Shown piece by piece: positions 2 to 28,881 of a stretch of 64,000 nt of DNA (the stretch's first letter is position 1; the number at the start of each line of letters is the position of its first letter). The notes below the pieces were generated by a model. The model was not told the origin of the DNA, made no database searches, and saw nothing but the letters and a program-made list of their open reading frames with translations. The stretch lies in NCBI GenBank assembly GCA_964501135.1, contig CAZCRI010000005.1, positions 14,771 through 78,770 of the forward strand. Reading direction: 5' to 3'. The DNA comes from an uncultured Candidatus Saccharibacteria bacterium (lineage in GTDB: Bacteria > Patescibacteriota > CPR2 > UBA1875 > CAIMLA01). A program made the position numbers and the translations under genes.

Positions 2-1171
2 AAAATCGATGAGGGCGAGCGTCTCTTTGAACAACTGGTCCTAGGGCGTCCCTACGAAGATGCGCCTTTTATTACCGCTCGAATCTGTGGCGTCTGCCCT
101 ACCGCTCACGTGCTGGTGGCAATCCAAGCAATCGAGGACGCCTTTGGGGTCACCGTAAACGAGAGGATTATGAGCTTGCGTCGCGCCTTACAAGCAGGGC
201 AGATTATTCAATCTCACGCTCTTCACCTCTTTTTTCTTGCTGCTCCCGACTACCTGGATGTCGTAAATGCCATCGAGCTTCATCACACTAGACCCGAGCT
301 TTACCGCACCGCCGTGGCAATGAAGAAATTGGGCGACAAACTGGTAGAGGTTATTGGAGGTCGAGCAATTCACCCGGTAGCCCCAGCGGTGGGTGGATTT
401 CTAAGCGTCCCCGGAAACGAAGTACTAAAGGAGCTGGTGACTGAGCTAAGAGCCGCTATTCCTATGGCGCTAGAGACGGTAGAACTCTTTGCCTCCTTTG
501 ACTACCCGGCGCTAAAGCGTAAGACCGAGTACCTTGCTACTCAGAAAGATGGCAAACTCACTTACCTCGACGGGGACAGCATCGTCTCAAACTCCAAGTT
601 CAAGGCAACAATTGAGAACTATGGCTATGCATTTACAGAAGAAGTGCGTAAAGACTCCAACACAAAGTATGGTACTCGAGACGGTCACGGCTTTATGGTT
701 GGAGCCCTCGCCCGTCTTTCGCTGGACCAGGAGAACCTCAATCCAAAAGCACTCTACGCCCTACGCAGTATTTGGGGCCAGAAATTACCTTCGTACAATA
801 GTTTCCATAACAATGTTGCTCAAGCAATTGAGATCGTACACCTTATCGAGGAAGCTATAATCCAGCTCGAATCAGCAATCGCAAACTCCAAGGAGCTTGC
901 CCGGGTACCATTTACTGTTCGTGAAGGTGCTGGAGTTGGGGCCATAGAAGCGCCTCGCGGCACCCTGTACCACTCGGTAAAAACGGATAAAAACGGAATT
1001 ATCACAGATTACGACATCGTTACACCTACCGTTCAGAGTCTCGTAAACCTCGAGGAAGATGCCGACGAAATGATGAAGAAATACGGCAAACTACCAGAAA
1101 AAGAACTATATCGACAAATCGAAATGCTAATCCGCGCCTACGACCCCTGCATCACCTGTTCGGTACATTAA
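2..1171 (+). CDS. [NiFe]-hydrogenase large (catalytic) subunit, 5'-truncated at window edge; probably a cytoplasmic group 3 enzyme
   Basis: Frame continuous from nt 2: KIDEGERLFEQLVLGRPYEDAPFITARICGVCPTAH (N-terminal RxCGxCxxxH Ni-ligand motif). ORF ends ...AYDPCITCSVH (C-terminal DPCxxCxxH motif). No start codon before window edge. Confidence 0.85.
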   Translation, partial: KIDEGERLFEQLVLGRPYEDAPFITARICGVCPTAHVLVAIQAIEDAFGVTVNERIMSLRRALQAGQIIQSHALHLFFLAAPDYLDVVNAIELHHTRPELYRTAVAMKKLGDKLVEVIGGRAIHPVAPAVGGFLSVPGNEVLKELVTELRAAIPMALETVELFASFDYPALKRKTEYLATQKDGKLTYLDGDSIVSNSKFKATIENYGYAFTEEVRKDSNTKYGTRDGHGFMVGALARLSLDQENLNPKALYALRSIWGQKLPSYNSFHNNVAQAIEIVHLIEEAIIQLESAIANSKELARVPFTVREGAGVGAIEAPRGTLYHSVKTDKNGIITDYDIVTPTVQSLVNLEEDADEMMKKYGKLPEKELYRQIEMLIRAYDPCITCSVH

Positions 1172-2282: not shown

Positions 2283-2729
2283 TCACCCCCTTCCCGAGGT
2301 AATATAACGGGCAATGAATACCTGGCGAAAATCTTCTTCTCCTTCGCGCGCATCCTTCCCGAGATTTGCGGCAACGAAGTGCGAATTGCGCGGATACCGG
2401 CCAAGAGCTTCGTCGATATACGAGTCCCATCTCTGCAGTACCACACGGCGCCCACCACGTGCAGAAGTAAAGCTGGCGTTGACTTGGAAGACAGATCCGT
2501 CTTCGTAGATTACTTCTCCACGAATCTTGATCGGCGCGATGAGAGTCGCCTCCATCGCCTTAACGACAGCATCGGCTTCGGATGAAGTCAGATGCTCTGT
2601 CATCACGAAAATCTCGCGTGAGCCCGGATCGCCATCACCCACCAGTCCCTCCGGGTCAATGACTCCTTCGGAGCCCAAAATACCGATGAACTGATGCGCA
2701 AACTTGCTAACCAGATACCTCTGATGCAT
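2283..2729 (-). CDS. hypothetical 148-aa protein (MHQRYLVSKFAHQFIGILGSEG...), first gene of a 2-gene cassette
   Basis: Clean ORF in ~55% GC DNA, preceded by AT-rich promoter region 2730-2950; no family recognised. Confidence 0.45.
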   Translation of the reverse strand: MHQRYLVSKFAHQFIGILGSEGVIDPEGLVGDGDPGSREIFVMTEHLTSSEADAVVKAMEATLIAPIKIRGEVIYEDGSVFQVNASFTSARGGRRVVLQRWDSYIDEALGRYPRNSHFVAANLGKDAREGEEDFRQVFIARYITSGRG

Positions 2730-2871
2730 GATAGCCTCCTAGGCTAGGTTGGTTGTAATGTACCTCGACTCAGTATTTCTGTTTCCCAAGTCGACTGTGT
2801 ATTGTAAACTCTTACCTTACCTTTGTCAATATAATCCTTGCTTTATTTCCATACTTGGTTTATACTATACT

Positions 2872-2916
2872 TTGTAAATCTATTCTGGTTTGTAAATCTT
2901 AATTTTACAATTTAAC
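2872..2916. promoter_or_regulatory. Candidate operator in divergent promoter region: direct repeat TTTGTAAATCT (x2) and inverted repeat TTGTAAA-N7-TTTACAA
   Basis: ctttgtaaatctattctggtttgtaaatcttaattttacaa lies between the divergently transcribed 148-aa gene and the TrmB-family regulator. Confidence 0.35.
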
Positions 2917-2955
2917 AGATGTGTATAACAACTTCTAACCCCATCGGGAGACTCT

Positions 2956-3743: not shown

Positions 3744-4394
3744 CTACAAGCCCAGTGCCTCTTTCGCCGCCACGGTTGCTTTCTGCAACCTTGGCGTCTT
3801 GTTGTAGTCGAGTAGGGTGACTCCCACCACGTTCTCTGGAATCCCACATGCGGCTTGCGCCGCCAAGACTCGTGCTGACAGCCCCCCGTCGGGAAGCCAC
3901 ACTAGTCCCGCAAGATGCGCGTAAGGGCTTCCATTCGATGGACCGAACTGTACCAGTCCCCGAATCTCCACGTTCGCTACGCCGTTGTCGTAGTAGTAAC
4001 GACCGCCCACTACTGTCAACGGCAGCAGAGTGTGCGCAAAAGCACGAAGTTCCTCGGGTATCTCTCTGCCCACAATGGTAGGTACTGTCTGAAACTTGCG
4101 AAAGTGCTCCGCACCAGAGAAGTGCAGGATCACGCTAGCAAGGTCCACCTTGCCGGTCGTCTGCTTTGCAGTCTCTGCAATCTCCTCGATAGGACGCAGC
4201 TCACGAACCGGAAGCTCGGCCTCTTTCTCGGTAAGACATCTTCCGAATGGCCCGAGAGCGTCGACAAAGTCCTCTGATGTGTTGCACTTCAGATACTCTG
4301 CCGCCTTCACCATCACGATGTTATCGGTACCGCCGCAGGTAGGAAGCAGATGGACGAGTCCATATCTGCCACCCTTGGTTATTTCCAGGTTCAT
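3744..4394 (-). CDS. hypothetical protein immediately downstream of hypC (position where hypD is usually found, but lacks HypD CGxH/GPGCPVC/CPVC motifs)
   Basis: 216-aa ORF, 12-nt gap after hypC, ~58% GC; sequence MNLEITKGGRYGLVHLLPTCGGTDN...; no diagnostic motif. Confidence 0.45.
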   Translation of the reverse strand: MNLEITKGGRYGLVHLLPTCGGTDNIVMVKAAEYLKCNTSEDFVDALGPFGRCLTEKEAELPVRELRPIEEIAETAKQTTGKVDLASVILHFSGAEHFRKFQTVPTIVGREIPEELRAFAHTLLPLTVVGGRYYYDNGVANVEIRGLVQFGPSNGSPYAHLAGLVWLPDGGLSARVLAAQAACGIPENVVGVTLLDYNKTPRLQKATVAAKEALGL

Positions 4395-4405
4395 GCGCTC
4401 ACCTC

Positions 4406-4624
4406 CTAGTGACTACTGTTGGCCTGGGAAATCAATTGTAGTATTTCTTCTGCGTCTTTACTAGGGATTCTGCTCACCGCAAGTTCACCATGGGCAAGAA
4501 TCCAGTCCCCAACCTGGGGATTGTCTATCAGCGAAAGCTCTACTTTATACTCTTTTCCGCCGTGAACGACATATCCATAGTCACCTTCGACGCGAATCAT
4601 TTGCATTGGTGTTGCGAGACACAT
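4406..4624 (-). CDS. hypC: [NiFe]-hydrogenase maturation chaperone HypC/HupF
   Basis: 72 aa beginning MCLATPMQMIRVEG (canonical MC[LI][AG][IV]P N-terminus with essential Cys2), typical size. Confidence 0.8.
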   Translation of the reverse strand: MCLATPMQMIRVEGDYGYVVHGGKEYKVELSLIDNPQVGDWILAHGELAVSRIPSKDAEEILQLISQANSSH

Positions 4625-4679
4625 AGTTACCTACTTTCGACAGCCACTCTCTGTTGGCTTTAATATCTGAATTAAATTC

Positions 4680-5096
4680 TTAAGCTACAGCTCTGTTTTG
4701 CTGTGCTTCAATGTATTGCCTTGCCTTTTCGACATCTATCGCATAAACCAAGGTTCTCCCGTCTTCTAGAATTCGATAAACAGTCGTAGGACGTACAACG
4801 CGTAGGCCAGGCTCCCCGCCATAAACCGGCATTGCCACCTTGATTGCTGCTTCTTCTGAGACTTCTATATTCCCACCAAGATAAATCAAATTATCTCCAG
4901 CTACTAATATCGTATTTTCTGGATCCATCTCCATCAGATGTTGAACCTCTAGTACGTTTGGCTTCTCCCCTACACCGTATTCGACATGGTAGTTCTGGGC
5001 AGTCTTTTCCGAAGACATTTGCCCGCTATTGTAGCCGCGCCACTCGTTTCGTGGCTGCTGCTCCTTCTCTGGTTGTGGATTATATCCTTCTATCAT
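4680..5096 (-). CDS. hypothetical protein (138 aa)
   Basis: ORF only; no motif recognised. Confidence 0.35.
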   Translation of the reverse strand: MIEGYNPQPEKEQQPRNEWRGYNSGQMSSEKTAQNYHVEYGVGEKPNVLEVQHLMEMDPENTILVAGDNLIYLGGNIEVSEEAAIKVAMPVYGGEPGLRVVRPTTVYRILEDGRTLVYAIDVEKARQYIEAQQNRAVA

Positions 5097-6633: not shown

Positions 6634-6664
6634 TATTATAGCTCAAAAAATAAAAAGAGCCGCA
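6634..6664 (-). terminator. Rho-independent terminator downstream of tRNA-Ile exon 2
   Basis: Minus strand: AGAGCCGCgttGCGGCTCT hairpin followed by TTTTTATTTTTT. Confidence 0.7.
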
Positions 6665-6728
6665 ACGCGGCTCTAATTTCCAATTTGGTGGGCCTGGCTG
6701 GACTTGAACCAGCGACCAATCGGTTATG

Positions 6729-7336
6729 CGTACCACTACAGCTTTCACTGCCCCTTTCGGGTTTGTAATCTGGACTATCCCTTCTTCCACGTGGGAAGTC
6801 TGCCAACTAGTCTCTACACCTTCCCCGACGATGCTGTCGGGACTTGGCTCGGGATTGCCATGACGTTTTCACGCTTTAGGTTTCCCCGAATTTGACAGAA
6901 TATACTAATGGATCGCTCCACTAGCAGCCCTTTGACTACTTGGCCTATCTAGAGTATTATCGGATTATGAAGGACTTCATAAACTGCAAGGTCTGCGGCA
7001 AACAACTATCGGGACGCCAACTGATGTTCTGTTCTGGCAAGTGCAAGAACAAAGTACATCAGTCTTATGGTGCCCAAAAGGAACGCGCCCTAGAGAGAAA
7101 GCTTTACTTTATCCGTTTGCTCGGCGGCAAATGCCAGGAGTGCGGATATAGCGAGAACCTAGCAGCCCTTTCCTTCCACCACAAAAGCGGTAAGGAATAT
7201 AAGCTGGATTCAAGATCGCTTTCCAATAGGGGTTTGCAGACAATGAGAGATGAAGTTGCCAAATGCGAGCTGCTTTGTGGCAACTGTCACATGAGACTTC
7301 ATAACCCTTCTCTGGACTTAGCCAAATTGTCAATTG
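6729..7336 (-). mobile_element. Group I self-splicing intron (608 nt) inserted between U33 and C34 of tRNA-Ile(CAU); core P3-P9 in 6729..~6900, long P1/P2 extension 6901..7336
   Basis: Intron RNA (minus strand) shows P3 UGUCAA/UUGGCA, P4 AAAUUCGGGGAAA / AAUCCCGAGCC (P/Q elements), P6 CCCGAC..GUCGGG, P7 GAGACUA / GGAUAGUCC (R/S elements), P8 CUUCC-cacgu-GGAAG, P9 CCC-gaaa-GGG. The 5' exon ends in U and the intron ends in G (GGUACG|CAUAA). Confidence 0.8.
6940..7336 (+). CDS. HNH endonuclease domain ORF (homing-endonuclease-like) encoded antisense within the intron P1/P2 extension; reads through in frame into tilS with no stop codon
   Basis: CKVCGK...FCSGKC zinc ribbon, then GGKCQECGYSENLAALSFHHKSGKEYKLDSRSL...CELLCGNCHMRLHN (CxxC...HH...N...CxxCH HNH signature). 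The ORF continues across the antisense tRNA exon 1. Confidence 0.6.
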
Positions 7337-7419
7337 AGCCGACTGCTCTAACCACTGAGCTACAGGCCCGCGAAATTGCTACGAATAGCAAGGGAATTAT
7401 AGCAAAAAAAGCACTGTCT

Positions 7420-8748
7420 GTGAAGGAATTTGGCTTTAGACTGACCACACTCGGCATCGAGAGGGAAACCAAGCTGGTTCTCGGCGTTTCTGGCGGTGTC
7501 GACTCCGTAGTGATGCTCGACCTCGTAGCGAGCTGCCTTCCAAAGCAAAACATGGTGATTGCTCACGTTAATCATGGATTCCGGGATGATTCGGACAAAG
7601 ATGAGAGATTTGTCCGTTCCTTGGCTAAGAAGTATGACATTACGTACACCTCTACAAAGCTAAAACCACACAACATGGCTTCAAACGAGTCGGGAAACCT
7701 CGAGGAATATTTTCGGGATAAAAGACGACGATTTTTACAGAATGCTGCCAAAAAATATGATGCGGGTTACGTAGCACTTGCCCACAATGCCGATGATCAG
7801 GCAGAAACAGTGCTGATGAATTTGGTCCGCGGAAGTGGTCCAGCGGGACTCTCCGGAATGAAAGAGCGCGAGGGTAAAATTCTTCGCCCCCTGCTAGGTA
7901 TTACGAAGACTGAGATTATTGCTTATGCAGAGATACACAAACTCAAATGGCACGAAGACACCACCAACACCGATACCAGCTACAACCGCAACTACCTTCG
8001 TCACCGAGTCTTACCGTTGCTTGGGCAACTCAACCCAGAGTACCTGGCAAACATTAGCCGCTCGGCAACGATTCAAGAAGAGATTGATGAATTACTAAAG
8101 GAGCGCGCCAAGTGGCTGGTAGAACAACTCCACACTAACACTTCAGTTTCTGCAGAGGTACCACGGCCAATTCTATACGAGGCCTTGGCGCAGATGTACG
8201 AAAAGGTAAAAGGTGATCGCAAGGAGCTCTCACTCGCCCATCTTGAAGCAGTCGCCCAGCTGGCAAGTGATGACCAAGGTACAAAAACCCTCGATCTACC
8301 GGGAAATGTTACAGCGAGGCGACGCTACAATCACCTTGATTTTGTGCTCAAAATGAGAGATAATAAAGCACCAATTATAGCCCCTCTTGAGCTATCTCTG
8401 GGGCACTCGAATTTTGGAAATTATAACGTAGAGATTACCGAATCTAACAGAGCCGACTCCAAGGACAAGTATTCTATTTTGCTCTCCTCCCTAGAAGGAT
8501 ACGTAATCCGCGCTGTCCTGCCAGGAGATAAAGTAGCAAAGACGGGTATGGAAGGCCATAAAAAGCTGCAAGACCTGTTCGTAGATGCTAAAATAGATAG
8601 GCAAAAACGTTCGCAAATTCCCCTTCTAGTCGGTACCACAAATAATGAAGTTCTGTGGATTCCCGGATTAGCAAAATCAAGAAACCTAGATAACAAAAAA
8701 CCGAAATATAGCATAACCATAAGCGAGGCCAGTCATGAAAACCGTTAA
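7420..8748 (+). CDS. tilS: tRNA(Ile)-lysidine synthetase TilS (likely start GTG 7420; six-frame ORF is continuous from the ATG at 6940)
   Basis: PP-loop LVLGVSGGVDSVVMLDLV (SGGxDS) about 18 aa after the candidate GTG start, total ~443 aa; conserved tilS-ftsH adjacency with 14-nt overlap. Confidence 0.8.
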   Translation: MKEFGFRLTTLGIERETKLVLGVSGGVDSVVMLDLVASCLPKQNMVIAHVNHGFRDDSDKDERFVRSLAKKYDITYTSTKLKPHNMASNESGNLEEYFRDKRRRFLQNAAKKYDAGYVALAHNADDQAETVLMNLVRGSGPAGLSGMKEREGKILRPLLGITKTEIIAYAEIHKLKWHEDTTNTDTSYNRNYLRHRVLPLLGQLNPEYLANISRSATIQEEIDELLKERAKWLVEQLHTNTSVSAEVPRPILYEALAQMYEKVKGDRKELSLAHLEAVAQLASDDQGTKTLDLPGNVTARRRYNHLDFVLKMRDNKAPIIAPLELSLGHSNFGNYNVEITESNRADSKDKYSILLSSLEGYVIRAVLPGDKVAKTGMEGHKKLQDLFVDAKIDRQKRSQIPLLVGTTNNEVLWIPGLAKSRNLDNKKPKYSITISEASHENR

Positions 8749-10555
8749 GAAAAATAAATATACTACCGTAATCGCAATAATCGTTGCCCTACTTGTGCTC
8801 GCTGGAGTTTATACCTATCTTGGCCAAGGCACTACGCCCAAAGCCGTAAGCATTAGTGATCTCGCTGGCGAAGTAAAAGATAATAAGGTTAGTAGCATTG
8901 TTGTTGAGGGTACAAACGTCATTATCACGATGAAAGACAAGACCAAACAGTCCTCGCAGATTGGTGCTAATGAGCAGATTACTACCACACTTAAAGATCT
9001 CGGTGCTGATCCAAGCAAGGTAAATTTGGACATCAAAGCGAGTAGCGACAACTCGATTTGGATTACCCTGCTCACTAGCGTCGTACCATTTATCCTTATC
9101 ATCGGTTTCTTTTACTTTATGCTCAAGCAAGCCCAAGGTGGCAACAACCAAGCAATGTCCTTTGGTAAATCTGGAGCCCGACTGGCGGACAACAAAAAGG
9201 ATAAGATTACCTTTGCCGACGTTGCTGGTGCCGCAGAGGCGAAGCAAGAACTCCTAGAAATCGTTGACTTCCTAAAACATCCCAAGAAATTCCTTGCCCT
9301 CGGCGCCAAAATTCCAAAAGGCGTACTCCTCTTCGGACAGCCAGGAACTGGTAAAACCCTGATGGCACGTGCTGTAGCCGGTGAGGCTGGGGTGCCCTTC
9401 TTCTCGATCTCCGGATCAGAATTCGTCGAGATGTTTGTCGGCGTTGGTGCCTCTCGTGTGCGTGATCTCTTTGCAAAAGCCAAGAAGAACGCTCCTTGTA
9501 TCATCTTTATTGACGAGATTGATGCCGTAGGTCGCCAACGTGGTACTGGTATGGGCGGCTCTCACGACGAACGCGAGCAGACCCTGAACCAGATTCTTAC
9601 TGAGATGGATGGTTTCGAGCAAGATACCAACGTGATCGTGATGGCAGCAACCAACCGACCAGATGTACTAGACCCTGCCCTGCAGCGTCCTGGACGCTTT
9701 GACCGTAAAGTTATTCTCGATATGCCAGACATCCAAGACCGTGAAGCTATTCTTATGGTTCACGCTAAGAATAAACCCCTCGCAAAGAACGTTGACCTCA
9801 AGGTAATCGCCCGCCAGACTCCAGGATTCTCGGGTGCTGACCTCCAAAACATCCTCAACGAAGCAGCAATCCTTGCCGCTCGAGAGAACAAAAAGGAAAT
9901 CTTTGCGATTGATGTTGAACACGCTGTCGAGAAAGTTTACCTCGGCCCAGAGCACAAGGGCGCTGGAATGAACGATAAAGAGAAGAAGATTACCGCTTAC
10001 CACGAGGCTGGACATGCAATTGTCGGCCATCTACTGGCTGGTACCGACCCAATCCACAAGATCTCTATCGTCTCCCGTGGTATGGCGCTCGGTGTTACCT
10101 GGTCACTGCCAGAAGAAGATAAGAAACTCTCTAGCAAATCAGAACTCGAAGATGACATCGCCATGATGCTTGGTGGTCGGGCTGCCGAAAAGATCTTTTT
10201 CTCGGATGTTACTACCGGTGCTAGCAACGACATGGAACGTGCTACCAAGCTGGCTCGCGAAATGGTAACTCGCTATGGCATGAGTGACGTCCTGGGCAAT
10301 CGAGTTTATGGCCGCAAGAACGAAATGGTCTTTTTGGGCCGCGAACTTGGCGAACATGACAAGGACTACTCCGAAAAAGTTGCCGCCCTTATCGACTCCG
10401 AGGTAGACAAGTTTGTTGAAAACGGCTACAAAAAAGCTACCGAAACTATCACCAAAAACAAAAAGAAGCTCGAAACTGTAGCTGCTGAGTTGATTGAAAA
10501 AGAAACCTTAGACGCAGAAGACTTCAAAAAGATTATGGATAAAGCAAAGGCATAA
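8735..10555 (+). CDS. ftsH: ATP-dependent zinc metalloprotease FtsH
   Basis: N-terminal TM, AAA+ Walker A GQPGTGKT, second-region-of-homology, HEAGHA zinc-binding motif; 606 aa. Confidence 0.95.
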
Positions 10556-12171
10556 TGAATCGCGTTAAGAAGTTTTGGTATGACATAAGTAATAAGAAGC
10601 TGACTATCGGAAATGCAGCTCTGATTCTTGGTGGTACCGGCCTGCTTTCCAACATTCTCGGTCTCTGGCGTGAACGCGTGATCGCGGGAACCTTCGGCGC
10701 TTCACATATGACCGACGCTTTCTACGCCTCTTTCCGCTTACCGGATATGATCTTTAATCTTCTGATTCTCGGTGCCCTCTCGAGTGCTTTTATCCCCGTA
10801 TTCGTCGAGAAGATTACCGAAAAGAAAAAAGAGGAAGCCAATGAGCTTGCTAGTTCCTTTATAAATTTTATTACTCTTTCGGCTGGCATCTTTGCGGTTA
10901 TTATCTTTATCCTCGCCCCAAAGCTAGTGCCCTTCCTTCTACCTGGGTTCTTTAACCGACCTGAAGCCAACATCGATATTTATAACGTCACCATAAACCT
11001 CACGCGGATGATGATGGTTTCGCCAATCCTCTTCTCGATTTCTGGGGTATTTGGCGGCATTCTAAACTCGTACAAGCGCTTTGTGGCCTACTCCTTAGCT
11101 CCGCTAATTTATAATCTTTCGATTATCTTAGCGGCAATCTTTTTGGCCCCGCGTTTCCAAACCCCGGTCTATGCCCTCGCAATCGGTGTAATTATCGGCG
11201 CCATGCTGCACGCCCTTATTCAGCTGCCATCTGTAATTTCTACCGGATTCCGTTGGAAGCCTACCCTGAACTTCAAGGAAGGTCAAATTGGGCGCATCAT
11301 TAAGCTGATGCTTCCTCGCACAATTACTATCGGCGTCGGACAGATAAACCTCTTCGTCGATACTATTGTTGCCTCCTTCTTTGTTGGCGGCATTACCGTC
11401 CTAAACTTCGCAAACGACATTCAGACCGCGCCAACCGTTATCTTCGGTATTGCCATCGCAACAGCCATCTTTCCTGTTCTTTCAGAGGCAAAAACCAAGA
11501 ATAATATGACCGAATTTATGAAGAATTTTTCTTGGAGTGCCCGCCGTATCCTTTACTTTACTATTCCGGCCACTATCGGCCTAATCGTTCTCCGCGCTCA
11601 GGTAATACGTTTGGTCTTCGGCGTTGGTAACTTCAGCTGGGACAATACCTACTGGACAACCAAGGCGCTGCTCTTCTTTGCAGTTGGTCTCGTTGCCCAA
11701 GGGCTGATTCCGCTACTACTCAAGGCATTTTATGCGATTCAAGACACCAAGACTCCGCTCTACATCAGTCTATCGGTGATGGCAGTAAACGCGATTCTTT
11801 CCGTTGCGCTGCCGTTTATCTCCCCTCTCGGCCTCGGAGTCGCAGGCATTGCGCTCGCCTTTTCTATTGCCGGCATCATCAACGCCATTGCGCTCTTTGT
11901 CGCACTGCATAACAAGGTTGGAGCGCTCGATCCCGACCACAAAATATTTGAATCCACGGCCAGATTAATAATCGCCTCGGTTATTATGGGAATCGTCGTA
12001 CACTACTCTCTCTATCTTTTTGACCCGCTAGTTAATACCCTCAGTGTCGTCGGCCTCTTTGTCCAGACTATGGGGGCGATTGCCTTTGGCGCAATCACCT
12101 ACTTTTTCTTCAGCTGGTTATTCAAATGCGAAGAAACCAAATTTGTTCTCGATAAACTACGTAGGGCCTAA
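10555..12171 (+). CDS. murJ: lipid II flippase MurJ (MviN)
   Basis: N-terminus RERVIAGTFGASHMTDAFYASFRLPDMIFNLLILGALSSAFIPVF typical of MurJ; ~14 TM helices; 538 aa. Confidence 0.9.
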   Translation: MNRVKKFWYDISNKKLTIGNAALILGGTGLLSNILGLWRERVIAGTFGASHMTDAFYASFRLPDMIFNLLILGALSSAFIPVFVEKITEKKKEEANELASSFINFITLSAGIFAVIIFILAPKLVPFLLPGFFNRPEANIDIYNVTINLTRMMMVSPILFSISGVFGGILNSYKRFVAYSLAPLIYNLSIILAAIFLAPRFQTPVYALAIGVIIGAMLHALIQLPSVISTGFRWKPTLNFKEGQIGRIIKLMLPRTITIGVGQINLFVDTIVASFFVGGITVLNFANDIQTAPTVIFGIAIATAIFPVLSEAKTKNNMTEFMKNFSWSARRILYFTIPATIGLIVLRAQVIRLVFGVGNFSWDNTYWTTKALLFFAVGLVAQGLIPLLLKAFYAIQDTKTPLYISLSVMAVNAILSVALPFISPLGLGVAGIALAFSIAGIINAIALFVALHNKVGALDPDHKIFESTARLIIASVIMGIVVHYSLYLFDPLVNTLSVVGLFVQTMGAIAFGAITYFFFSWLFKCEETKFVLDKLRRA

Positions 12172-13952
12172 TGGATCAAAGCAAAATACGTAATTTCTGC
12201 ATTATTGCCCATATTGACCATGGCAAATCGACGCTCTCGGATCGCTTTTTAGAGGTAACAAACACCATCGATAAGCGTGACATGCACGCTCAACTTCTCG
12301 ATACCATGGAACTCGAACAAGAGCGCGGCATCACCATCAAACTTCAGCCGGCCAGGATGGAATACCAGGGTCACATTCTAAATCTAATCGATACTCCAGG
12401 ACATGTGGACTTTACCTACGAAGTCTCCCGTTCGCTTGCCGCTGTCGAGGGAGCTATCCTTGTAGTTGATGCTTCGCAAGGGATTGAAGCACAAACTCTT
12501 TCCAACATCTACCTCGCCCTCGAGCACAACCTAGAAATTATTCCGGTTCTAAACAAGATTGACTTACCTCATGCCGAGCCCGAGAAAGTAGCGCAGGAAA
12601 TCATTGACCTACTGGGAGTAAAACGCGAAGAGATAATCCTTGCTTCCGGCAAAACCGGCGAAGGGGTCGCTACTATCCTTGAGCGCGTGATCGAAAAAGT
12701 TCCAGCGCCCAAAGGAGAAACAGAGAAACCTTTCCGCGCCCTTATTTTTGATTCTTTTTACGATACTTACAAAGGTGTAGTTGCTTATGTCCGGGTTATC
12801 GATGGCGCCCTACCGAAAGGACAGAAGCTACACATGCTGGGTAGCAAATCTGGGGCAGAAAGTATCGAAATCGGCTATATTACGCCGAAATTTGTGCCAG
12901 AAGACCGGGTAAAAACTGGGGAGATTGGCTATATTGTCACCGGACTTCGTGACGTCTCCGGCGCACCTGTTGGTGATACCGTAACACTCGCTAGCGACAA
13001 AGATGTCGAGATGCTCCCGGGATACAAAAAGGTAAAACCATTTGTCTTTGCCGGGATTTATACTACCGAAGGAGATGACTATCCCCTACTACGCGAAGCC
13101 CTTGGCAAGCTAAGCCTCTCCGATTCATCGCTGGCTTATGAGCCAGAGGTTTCTAGCGCTCTCGGCTTTGGTTTCCGTTGTGGTTTCCTTGGTCTCCTCC
13201 ACATGGATATCGTGAAGGAGAGATTGGAACGTGAGTTCAACCTCGACCTTCTCGTTACCATTCCTTCTGTCGCCTACGAGATTGTAAAAACCAACAAAGA
13301 AGTGACGATCATAAACAGTCCTGCAGAACTACCAAACATTATGCACATTCAAGAAATTCGTGAGCCTTGGGTAAGGGTAGAGATTGTAACCCCAAGCGAC
13401 TATATTGGCGTCATTATGGAACTCATTACTAATCGTCGTGGTATCTTCAAAACTATCGACTACCTCGAAGAAACCAGAGTAATCGTAAAATGCGAAATGC
13501 CACTCTCCCAGATAGTTACTGATTTCTTTGATGTACTCAAAAGCATCTCCTCCGGCTACGCCAGCATGAGTTACGAATTCATCGAATACCGTGCCGGAGA
13601 CCTGGTGAAGGTAGATATTTACATTGCCGAAACCGTCGTTGATACCCTCTCACTCCTCGTGCACCGAAGTGAAGCGCAAACCGTAGGTAAACAGGTAGTC
13701 GAGAAGCTAAAATCACTGATTCCAAAGCAACTCTTCAAGGTGGCCTTACAGGCTGCCATCGGTGGCAAGATTATTGCCCGTGAAGATATCTCCGCAATGC
13801 GCAAAGACGTTACTGCCAAACTCTATGGTGGCGACGTTACCCGTAAGAATAAACTGCTCAACAAACAAAAAGAAGGTAAAAAACGCATGAAGAAGTTCGG
13901 CAAAGTTGAAATCCCCTCGGGCGTCTTCATGGAACTACTAAAGAAAGATTAA
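12171..13952 (+). CDS. lepA: elongation factor 4 (LepA)
   Basis: IRNFCIIAHIDHGKSTLSDR G1 motif, DTPGHVDF, NKID; LepA-specific C-terminal domain; 593 aa. Confidence 0.95.
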   Translation: MDQSKIRNFCIIAHIDHGKSTLSDRFLEVTNTIDKRDMHAQLLDTMELEQERGITIKLQPARMEYQGHILNLIDTPGHVDFTYEVSRSLAAVEGAILVVDASQGIEAQTLSNIYLALEHNLEIIPVLNKIDLPHAEPEKVAQEIIDLLGVKREEIILASGKTGEGVATILERVIEKVPAPKGETEKPFRALIFDSFYDTYKGVVAYVRVIDGALPKGQKLHMLGSKSGAESIEIGYITPKFVPEDRVKTGEIGYIVTGLRDVSGAPVGDTVTLASDKDVEMLPGYKKVKPFVFAGIYTTEGDDYPLLREALGKLSLSDSSLAYEPEVSSALGFGFRCGFLGLLHMDIVKERLEREFNLDLLVTIPSVAYEIVKTNKEVTIINSPAELPNIMHIQEIREPWVRVEIVTPSDYIGVIMELITNRRGIFKTIDYLEETRVIVKCEMPLSQIVTDFFDVLKSISSGYASMSYEFIEYRAGDLVKVDIYIAETVVDTLSLLVHRSEAQTVGKQVVEKLKSLIPKQLFKVALQAAIGGKIIAREDISAMRKDVTAKLYGGDVTRKNKLLNKQKEGKKRMKKFGKVEIPSGVFMELLKKD

Positions 13953-28806: not shown

Positions 28807-28881
28807 TCCCGGGTAGCTCAGTGGTAGAGCAGTTGGCTGTTAACCAATTGGTCGTCGGTTCGAATCCGACCCCGGGAGCCA
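28807..28881 (+). tRNA. tRNA-Asn(GUU)
   Basis: TCCCGGG-TA-GCTC-AGTGGTA-GAGC-A-GTTGG-CTGTTAA-CCAAT-TGGTC-GTCGG-TTCGAAT-CCGAC-CCCGGGA-G-CCA; anticodon GTT; CCA encoded. Confidence 0.9.

Follow-up and report, generated by a model that had tools for sequence, protein, structure and literature searches.

This locus raises the question of how a gene for the tRNA that reads AUA could remain functional when it is split within its anticodon loop, and of where an endonuclease frame on the opposite strand, which leaves the insertion without a stop codon, would end. The enzyme TilS turns the anticodon CAU of tRNA-Ile2 into lysidine-AU, so that the tRNA reads AUA. In the window considered here (64,000 nucleotides (nt) of contig CAZCRI010000005.1, from an uncultured Candidatus Saccharibacteria bacterium, whose own coordinates are used below), the tRNA-Ile2 gene very probably contains a group I intron of the IC3 lineage, inserted between U33 and C34, in a patescibacterial host (Candidate Phyla Radiation, CPR). 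An HNH endonuclease gene lies antisense within this intron, and its open reading frame (ORF) continues into tilS, the next gene.

The split tRNA(CAU) gene went undetected in the window by default ARAGORN and by the Rfam tRNA model. When long introns were permitted, ARAGORN placed a tRNA(CAU) at 7369..6686 (-) and, directly after its nucleotide 33, an intron of 608 nt, which is where the initial annotation had joined two halves by inspection. The joined exons (33 + 43 nt), GGGCCUGUAGCUCAGUGGUUAGAGCAGUCGGCU + CAUAACCGAUUGGUCGCUGGUUCAAGUCCAGCCAGGCCCACCA, form a canonical 76-nt cloverleaf with stems of 7, 4, 5 and 5 bp, a 7-nt anticodon loop, a T-loop of the form GTTCRA and an encoded CCA. Three splice registers produce the same mature tRNA, and only the register after U33 has an exon-final U and an intron-final G.

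Relatives were gathered from the contigs of 20 homologues of the HNH protein and from a metagenome scan with protein alignment (94 relatives, with 80 loci retained). Both ends of the gene could be placed in 54 distinct loci, mostly from Patescibacteria and Saccharibacteria metagenomes, and the alignment of these loci (A2) underlies the counts given for the tRNA and the intron. Each of the 54 is split as GGCU / intron...G / CAUAAC, so the exon-final U, the intron-final G and the 33/34 insertion that had been read from the window alone hold for the family. Across the two exon halves, 99.9% of 1134 cells of the cloverleaf are paired and 10 of 21 pairs have compensatory changes; in a control with the 3' partners shifted by 1-3 columns, only 31-49% of cells are paired. 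Unless the two halves, which lie 600 nt apart, end up in a single RNA, selection on base pairing between them would make no sense.

The sequence between the exons has the features expected of a self-splicing group I intron with what appears to be an intact catalytic core. The Rfam model for such introns (RF00028, Intron_gpI) matches 6944..6748 (-) with 58.9 bits against a gathering threshold of 50 (E = 2e-12), over model positions 1-253 and without truncation, and the relatives score between 54.7 and 76.7 bits. Taken over P1 with its extension, P2-P9 and P9a, the intron helices are 88.5% paired in the alignment and 50 of 77 pairs have a compensatory change; none of 500 shuffled controls was as high. 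Compensatory changes are seen in P2, P3, P6a, P7, P8, P9 and P9a, and one pair of P7 is G-C in 38 sequences and A-U in 16. The core junctions are invariant and the terminal G of the intron is kept in all aligned rows. The earlier placement of P3, P4, P6, P7, P8 and P9 was essentially right. P2 carries a GNRA tetraloop, as it does in other IC3 introns, and the core is 74.6% (213 columns) and 75.1% (185 columns) identical to two introns labelled IC3 in a recent survey of bacterial tRNA introns (PMC13011429).

The part of the intron that had been described as a P1/P2 extension of about 430 nt requires a different description, since it is an insertion in the P1 loop that carries the antisense HNH gene and not a structural extension. 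The true guide is located about 400 nt downstream of the intron 5' end as the invariant GGGCUG directly 5' of P2. The U33·G wobble with this distal guide is found in 54 of 54 loci, two short introns included, and the helix is 97.6% paired. In a published Acidobacteriota relative, the exon sequence GGACU stands opposite GGUUG, a compensatory change within P1 itself. Three further stems, P1x, P1a and P1b, extend P1 and enclose a loop of about 360 nt that is the antisense of the ORF; P1a and P1b together show compensatory change in 12 of 13 pairs. A compact P1 hairpin formed by the first 17 nt of the intron, GGCU/CAAUUGACAAUUUGGCU, was also considered and was discarded, as the position opposite U33 is an A in 10 sequences and makes no standard pair in 7. 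The proximal GGCU element covaries instead with a GCC(A) about 380 nt downstream, where one pair is G-C in 32, A-U in 9 and U-A in 7 sequences.

The protein encoded antisense to the P1 loop begins with an HNH domain. Residues 5-120 match the HNH endonuclease family phrog_2255 (E = 2.5e-21), phrog_3106 (4e-17) and three more PHROGs. A database search returned 20 homologues at 62-74% identity, two of which are named Candidatus Saccharibacteria, and all 20 contain the HH...N...CxxCH...H motif and four CxxC pairs. In the alignment of HNH proteins (A1), H71, H72, N87, C104, N106, C107, H108, H112, C26, C56, C59 and C100 are invariant and 90% or more of the sequences retain C7, C10 and C22. Pfam reports zinc-finger and HNH matches that are all below threshold (PF01844 at E = 0.92), which may be one reason that such genes escape Pfam-based surveys; a sequence search of the PDB with the domain gave nothing significant. 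An AlphaFold model has a mean pLDDT of 71.6, with residues 1-115 at 70-87.

Between family members, dN of the HNH gene is 0.16-0.36 and synonymous sites are saturated, a pattern that points to long-term purifying selection on the gene. The intron and HNH gene are 77-81% identical between relatives for which TilS is 46-50% identical. Recent horizontal transfer was considered as the cause of this difference and was set aside because of the saturated synonymous sites; long-term purifying selection would account for it. We infer that the HNH enzyme cuts intron-less tRNA-Ile2 genes and drives homing of the intron, the presumed intron-less target being ...GAGCAGTCGGCT/CATAACCGATTGG.... Only 7 nt separate the end of a promoter-like site for the HNH(-tilS) mRNA from ATG 6967, so that this mRNA might lack a leader. 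The -35 box of the site, TTGACT, is antisense to the 3' strand of P1x and lies beside the guide (6932-6960 (+) versus 6925-6936 (-)); the same bases would thus be ribozyme on one strand and promoter on the other.

The continuous frame that takes in the HNH gene and tilS comprises 602 codons and meets no stop in the window on its way into tilS, and the other two frames over the same 140 nt contain 4 and 5 stops. The linker that is created in this way is predicted to be disordered (pLDDT 36-48) and derives from the RNA gene that it crosses: the peptide LDLAKLSI-EPTALTTEL, which recurs at the C terminus of homologues, is what the 5' strand of P1 and the 5' exon of the tRNA encode in antisense, and IIAKK is the antisense of the TGnTATAAT box of the tRNA. 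The TilS portion contains the SGGVDS motif and matches PP-loop PF01171 with 175.6 bits (1e-51), TilS_C PF11734 with 42.1 (6e-11) and the substrate-binding domain PF09179 with 24.4 (3e-5), all above their cut-offs. The only plausible start that tilS has of its own is GTG 7420, which is not preceded by a Shine-Dalgarno-like motif; most neighbouring genes have a G-rich one. Public annotation of the identical sequence calls a 593-aa fusion from ATG 6967 (P0021).

The same arrangement of HNH domain, antisense-exon peptide and TilS in one ORF is present in P0023, P0024, L202 and L203, where the linkers are 22-57 aa, the TilS parts are 46-54% identical to that of the window and every frame is open; a split tRNA within the ORF and a complete HNH domain were confirmed for L202 and L203. 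In most relatives, the HNH frame stops 2-65 nt upstream of the tRNA, and in those with an extra nucleotide in P1 it stops at the splice junction. For the window, an HNH-TilS fusion protein is marginally favoured as the main product.

A second group of proteins is relevant to this reading. About 20 further TilS proteins of 554-638 aa (P0022, P0026-P0042, P0044-P0047, P0062 and the gene at 3001-4896 of L200, P0037) have an N-terminal domain homologous to the HNH domain (hhalign probability 99.9%, E = 5e-37), and from these it follows that HNH-TilS polypeptides exist in the clade. This domain has FY in place of the catalytic HH (SFHH to SFYD) and CRNC in place of CHNCH but retains every zinc cysteine; the linker contains no tRNA exon. 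The catalytically dead domain looks like a domesticated endonuclease. In L200, the gene for such a protein is 267 nt from an intron-less tRNA-Ile2 gene, whose allele is GTCCCCTCATAAGGGAT and whose anticodon stem, GUCCC/GGGAU, cannot pair with the guide of the window intron. A neighbour-joining tree of the HNH domains, calculated without support values, places the intron-borne fusions (type A) and the dead-domain fusions (type B) in one clade each; in a TilS tree of the same kind and by FtsH similarity, the two types are interleaved. It is an even call whether the antisense homing endonuclease has become the N-terminal domain of TilS in one polypeptide, with the dead-HNH TilS proteins as a domesticated end point or as a parallel state. 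If it has, a nuclease directed at the tRNA-Ile2 gene and the modifier of the tRNA-Ile2 transcript would be combined in that polypeptide, and a stretch of its coding sequence would lie, in antisense, within the gene for the very tRNA on which it acts.

Just downstream of the full tRNA-Ile2 gene, partial duplicates of its 3' part are found in L200 at 2509-2567 (-) and in L203 about 190 nt beyond the tRNA 3' end. Recombination or integration at this locus may have left them as scars. No such partial duplicate of the tRNA is present in the window.

Several observations weigh against the account given above and are best considered together with the rival explanations. It is very improbable that the intron has decayed into a relic incapable of splicing, which would leave the gene a tRNA pseudogene. 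P10 amounts to 1-2 bp at most, as might be expected of a relic, but the Rfam match is full length and above threshold, the core junctions do not vary, every helix shows compensatory change over the 54 loci, and the U·G wobble and terminal G are universally kept. Covariation of the exon halves is expected only with selection on the spliced tRNA, tilS is retained as the neighbouring gene, and AUA is used as a codon (for 41 of the 321 Ile codons in seven long ORFs of the window). The assignment of the intron to IC3 is made by likeness to introns that others have classified, and the promoter-like sites and the terminator-like hairpin that would frame the two transcripts are consensus matches. The identity of the tRNA calls for more discussion, because ARAGORN labels every CAU anticodon as Met and because the initial annotation had based its choice of Ile2 in part on the pairs C4-G69, C5-G68 and C29-G41 as TilS determinants. 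Among the 54 orthologues, pair 4:69 is G-C in 33 (C4-G69 in the window) and pair 5:68 is C-G in 29, G-C in 20 and A-U in 5 (C5-G68 in the window); pair 29:41 is C-G in 48, as in the window. TilS determinants vary from bacterium to bacterium. The argument from pairs 4:69 and 5:68 is therefore weak, and the distinction between Ile2 and elongator Met is made by similarity and context. On these grounds the tRNA is most likely the lysidine-type tRNA-Ile2. Its best match in E. coli is a gene annotated tRNA-Ile, with 89.5% identity over all 76 nt; tilS lies 50 nt from the tRNA gene and the gene adjoins tilS in at least eight lineages; AUA is in use in the window, as given above; and the closest published introns sit in genes assigned to Ile2. 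A second tRNA(CAU) near many of the related loci is the initiator, recognized by its C1xA72 mismatch, and is distinct from the split tRNA. Introns at position 33/34 of tRNA-Met(CAU) have been published for the patescibacterial class Microgenomatia (PMC13011429), but those introns and exons are unrelated to the ones described here (a 17-nt local match, different exons), and an elongator tRNA-Met(CAU) at this locus is improbable.

The more serious alternative, which is quite possible if short of probable, is that HNH and TilS are separate proteins: TilS could begin at GTG 7420, an ordinary position for a TilS start, and the 602-codon frame would then be a by-product, with read-through rare or irrelevant. 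In agreement with this, the same ORF ends ahead of the tRNA or at the intron border in most relatives, and in the sister clade that also lies beside tilS (L120, L128/L009, L135) the HNH stop falls 5 nt past the tRNA, a position confirmed in L128 and in L135, whereas the end of the L120 ORF was missed by the motif scan. The genes of L009/L128 are called apart, as an HNH protein of 136 aa and a TilS of 437 aa. Since the sister-clade HNH frame stops before tilS, fusion is unnecessary for the element to work. The linker, which is predicted to be disordered, also appears to be constrained by its roles as RNA and promoter and not by what the protein does. Against separate proteins, the frame is open in all five known lineages of the HNH subclade in spite of linkers that range from 22 to 57 aa and TilS identities of 46-54%, and the neutral chance of an open frame is about 0.07 per lineage by a rough estimate (1/3 in frame x ~0.2 without a stop). 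The GTG lacks a Shine-Dalgarno-like motif, an mRNA that runs on into tilS could not give the endonuclease, which has no stop codon, as a free protein, and about 20 other lineages have TilS fused to a related HNH domain that is catalytically dead. As regards the fold of the N-terminal domain, a Foldseek search of the PDB has HNH nucleases as its top matches (Cap5, T4 endonuclease VII, Gme HNH and Cas9), none of them significant (all E > 0.1).

With a spliced tRNA-Ile2 as the preferred reading, the following sequence of events can be proposed. Transcription would begin at the extended -10 promoter (7424..7396), stop at the terminator (6674..6656) and yield a pre-tRNA of about 715 nt. Nucleotides 29-33 of the tRNA (CGGCU) would pair with GGCUG about 400 nt downstream to form P1 with the U33·G pair at the splice site, P1x, P1a and P1b would continue this helix, and the P2-P9 core would fold as in other IC3 introns; for these pairings, covariation lends support. 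An exogenous guanosine would then attack after U33, and the freed U33-OH would attack after the terminal G at 6729 and join U33 to C34 to give the 76-nt tRNA. TilS would act only after splicing, because its target C34 opens the 3' exon and there is no anticodon loop until the exons are ligated. On the other strand, the HNH frame, having no stop within the intron, would leave it through the antisense of the 5' exon and the tRNA promoter and run on in frame into tilS.

The distribution of the relatives gives some indication of how the element may have spread. The intron is 586-686 nt long with the HNH gene inside in 52 of the 54 loci, and 250-258 nt long with the HNH gene outside in the remaining two. 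Of this pair, L172 has an HNH gene at 275-673 (+) that overlaps the 3' end of a tRNA gene at 652-986 (-), and L167 has one at 2501-2860 (+), 1.5 kb from a tRNA gene at 4354-4680 (-); both introns are free of ORFs, and both outside HNH genes are homologous and intact. The intron and HNH gene together occur in at least three gene neighbourhoods, beside divIC, beside dus and beside tilS-ftsH. A scan of viral contigs gave 104 matches, and the loci returned from it (L015-L118) include 87 intron-less tRNA(CAU) genes that share the exact anticodon arm TAGAGCAGTYGGCTCATAA with the window tRNA; no copy of the intron was found at these viral loci. The 87 tRNA genes would carry the presumed homing site. 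One predicted viral contig (L199, IMGVR_UViG_3300015263_000342) encodes a free-standing relative of the HNH protein at 2429-2866 (+), with 52% identity and an intact catalytic motif, the 3' end of which abuts a weak tRNA-like gene at 2848-2920 (-) (Rfam tRNA, 36.4 bits); no group I intron was detected in L199. A scan of reference genomes with TilS yielded one distant Dehalococcoidia locus at 31% identity, with no tRNA near.

The element has features in common with several known systems. The intron of the cyanobacterial tRNA-fMet(CAU), which encodes I-Ssp6803I, is also inserted at 33/34 of a tRNA(CAU) and also brings a homing endonuclease to the anticodon region, but its tRNA is the initiator and its enzyme is a PD-(D/E)XK nuclease. 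We know of no report that the cyanobacterial ORF is antisense or leaves its intron. The tRNA-Ile(CAU) intron of Azoarcus, which the initial annotation had also named, is about 205 nt long and has no endonuclease gene, and its 5' exon ends in CAU, so that the insertion would be after position 36 and not 33. It shares with the window the host tRNA, the IC3 subgroup and a compact core with a GNRA-capped P2 (PMC3984707). Closest are the IC3 introns at position 33/34 of tRNA-Ile2(CAU) listed by Nakagawa et al. (2026, mSystems, PMC13011429, Table S5) for GCF_000018425.1 (Bacillota_B) and GCA_016700075.1 (Acidobacteriota). They have the same tRNA, the same site and a guide of the GGGCUG type 5' of P2, with about 75% identity over a core of about 205 nt; they differ in being 244-252 nt long without an ORF, whereas the window intron holds the antisense HNH gene in its P1 loop. 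Insertion at 33/34 of tRNA-Ile2 is thus already published and is not novel as a feature alone.

In the same survey, which covered complete genomes, no patescibacterial tRNA intron was of type IC, and of 333 tRNA introns, 12 are longer than 500 nt with an endonuclease gene, none of them in tRNA-Ile2 (PMC13011429). The lineage of the window intron, with its host phylum and its cargo, is thus absent from that survey. The tRNA most often split by introns in Patescibacteria is tRNA-Asn (PMC13011429). Those of its introns that have HNH genes are similar to that of the window in phylum, in residing in a tRNA and in carrying an HNH-family gene, but they belong to subgroup IA, are inserted at 35/36 and have an HNH domain that is seen by PF01844 (PMC13011429). 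Their core resembles that of the window only in a 63-column local match. Apart from the split gene, the window contains a single tRNA gene, an intron-less tRNA-Asn(GUU) at 28807-28881 (+).

Endonuclease genes that run opposite to the ribozyme strand are also known from nuclear rDNA introns such as L2066 (PMC9548176), which are eukaryotic, encode His-Cys box enzymes and have rRNA as host; a 2014 review of bacterial group I introns mentions none (PMC3984707). The arrangement in relatives L172 and L167 matches collaborative homing, in which a free-standing endonuclease lies beside an ORF-less intron and which has been proposed as a precursor of mobile introns (Bonocora & Shub; Zeng et al. 2009; both via PMC3984707); in the window, the gene is inside the intron instead. 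Among the papers searched, nothing relevant was found on a TilS-HNH fusion or on TilS in Patescibacteria, and no description, for bacterial group I introns, of an antisense ORF in a P1 loop that uses a tRNA exon and promoter as coding sequence. While the kind of intron was published in 2026, what is new here is that the P1 loop houses an HNH gene in antisense, that its ORF takes the exon and promoter as coding sequence, and that the frame runs into tilS.

The coordinates of the locus are collected in Table 1. Downstream of tilS, Pfam identifies ftsH, murJ and lepA at 8735-13952 (+), and the order tilS-ftsH-murJ is common to L200, L201, L202 and L203. The named relatives of the FtsH protein are from a Patescibacteria group bacterium (74%), Howlettbacteria (66%) and WS5 (65%), in keeping with a patescibacterial host; an exact look-up of the FtsH sequence itself found no record.

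Table 1. Features of the split tRNA gene, its intron and the antisense frame, in window coordinates.
Feature	Position	Strand	Details
Intrinsic terminator-like hairpin with T run	6656..6674	(-)	12 nt past the tRNA 3' end; consensus match
tRNA 3' exon	6686..6728	(-)	nt 34-76, first nucleotides the anticodon CAU, encoded CCA included; ARAGORN and covariation
Group I intron, IC3-like	6729..7336	(-)	608 nt, omega-G at 6729; Rfam and ARAGORN
Ribozyme core P2-P9	6748..6944	(-)	Rfam Intron_gpI match
Internal guide sequence GGCUG	6925..6929	(-)	Pairs with tRNA nt 29-33 (CGGCU) as P1; G6929 wobbles with U33
P1x/P1a/P1b 3' strands	6932..6954	(-)	Partners 6936-6932, 6945-6939 and 6952-6947; close the ORF-holding loop
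Promoter-like site, HNH(-tilS) mRNA	6932..6960	(+)	TTGACT, 17-nt spacer, TATTAT; 10/12, consensus match
HNH homing-endonuclease domain (putative), residues 1-112	6967..7302	(+)	Antisense, in terminal loop of the P1 extension; phrog_2255 and homologues
Linker of the open frame	7303..7419	(+)	Antisense of P1 5' strand (LDLAKLSI), tRNA 5' exon (EPTALTTELQA) and tRNA -10 box (IIAKK)
P1-extension 5' strands	7312..7333	(-)	P1x UUGAC 7333-7329, P1a UUUGGCU 7326-7320, P1b GUCCAG 7317-7312
tRNA-Ile2(CAU) (most likely), 5' exon	7337..7369	(-)	nt 1-33, last is U33; intron-aware ARAGORN and covariation with the 3' exon (54 loci)
Pre-tRNA promoter-like site	7396..7424	(-)	TTCACA, 17-nt spacer, TG-TATAAT; 11/12 plus extended -10 TG, consensus match
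tilS	7420..8748	(+)	In frame with the HNH ORF; PF01171, PF11734, PF09179

The finding has consequences for how genomes of this clade are read. As standard tools (default ARAGORN and the Rfam tRNA model) miss this essential tRNA, the genomes would seem to be without a decoder of AUA. With at least 94 relatives of one endonuclease-bearing IC3 intron, many of them Saccharibacteria-like, mobile tRNA introns would be more common in draft and metagenome data than complete genomes suggest. The fusion, if true, would link a selfish element, a host tRNA and the enzyme that modifies it in one overlapping locus, and the three states of the endonuclease, free-standing, within the intron and as a dead domain on TilS, would make invasion and domestication directly testable. 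It would then be a documented case of a homing endonuclease that was co-opted by a core enzyme of translation.

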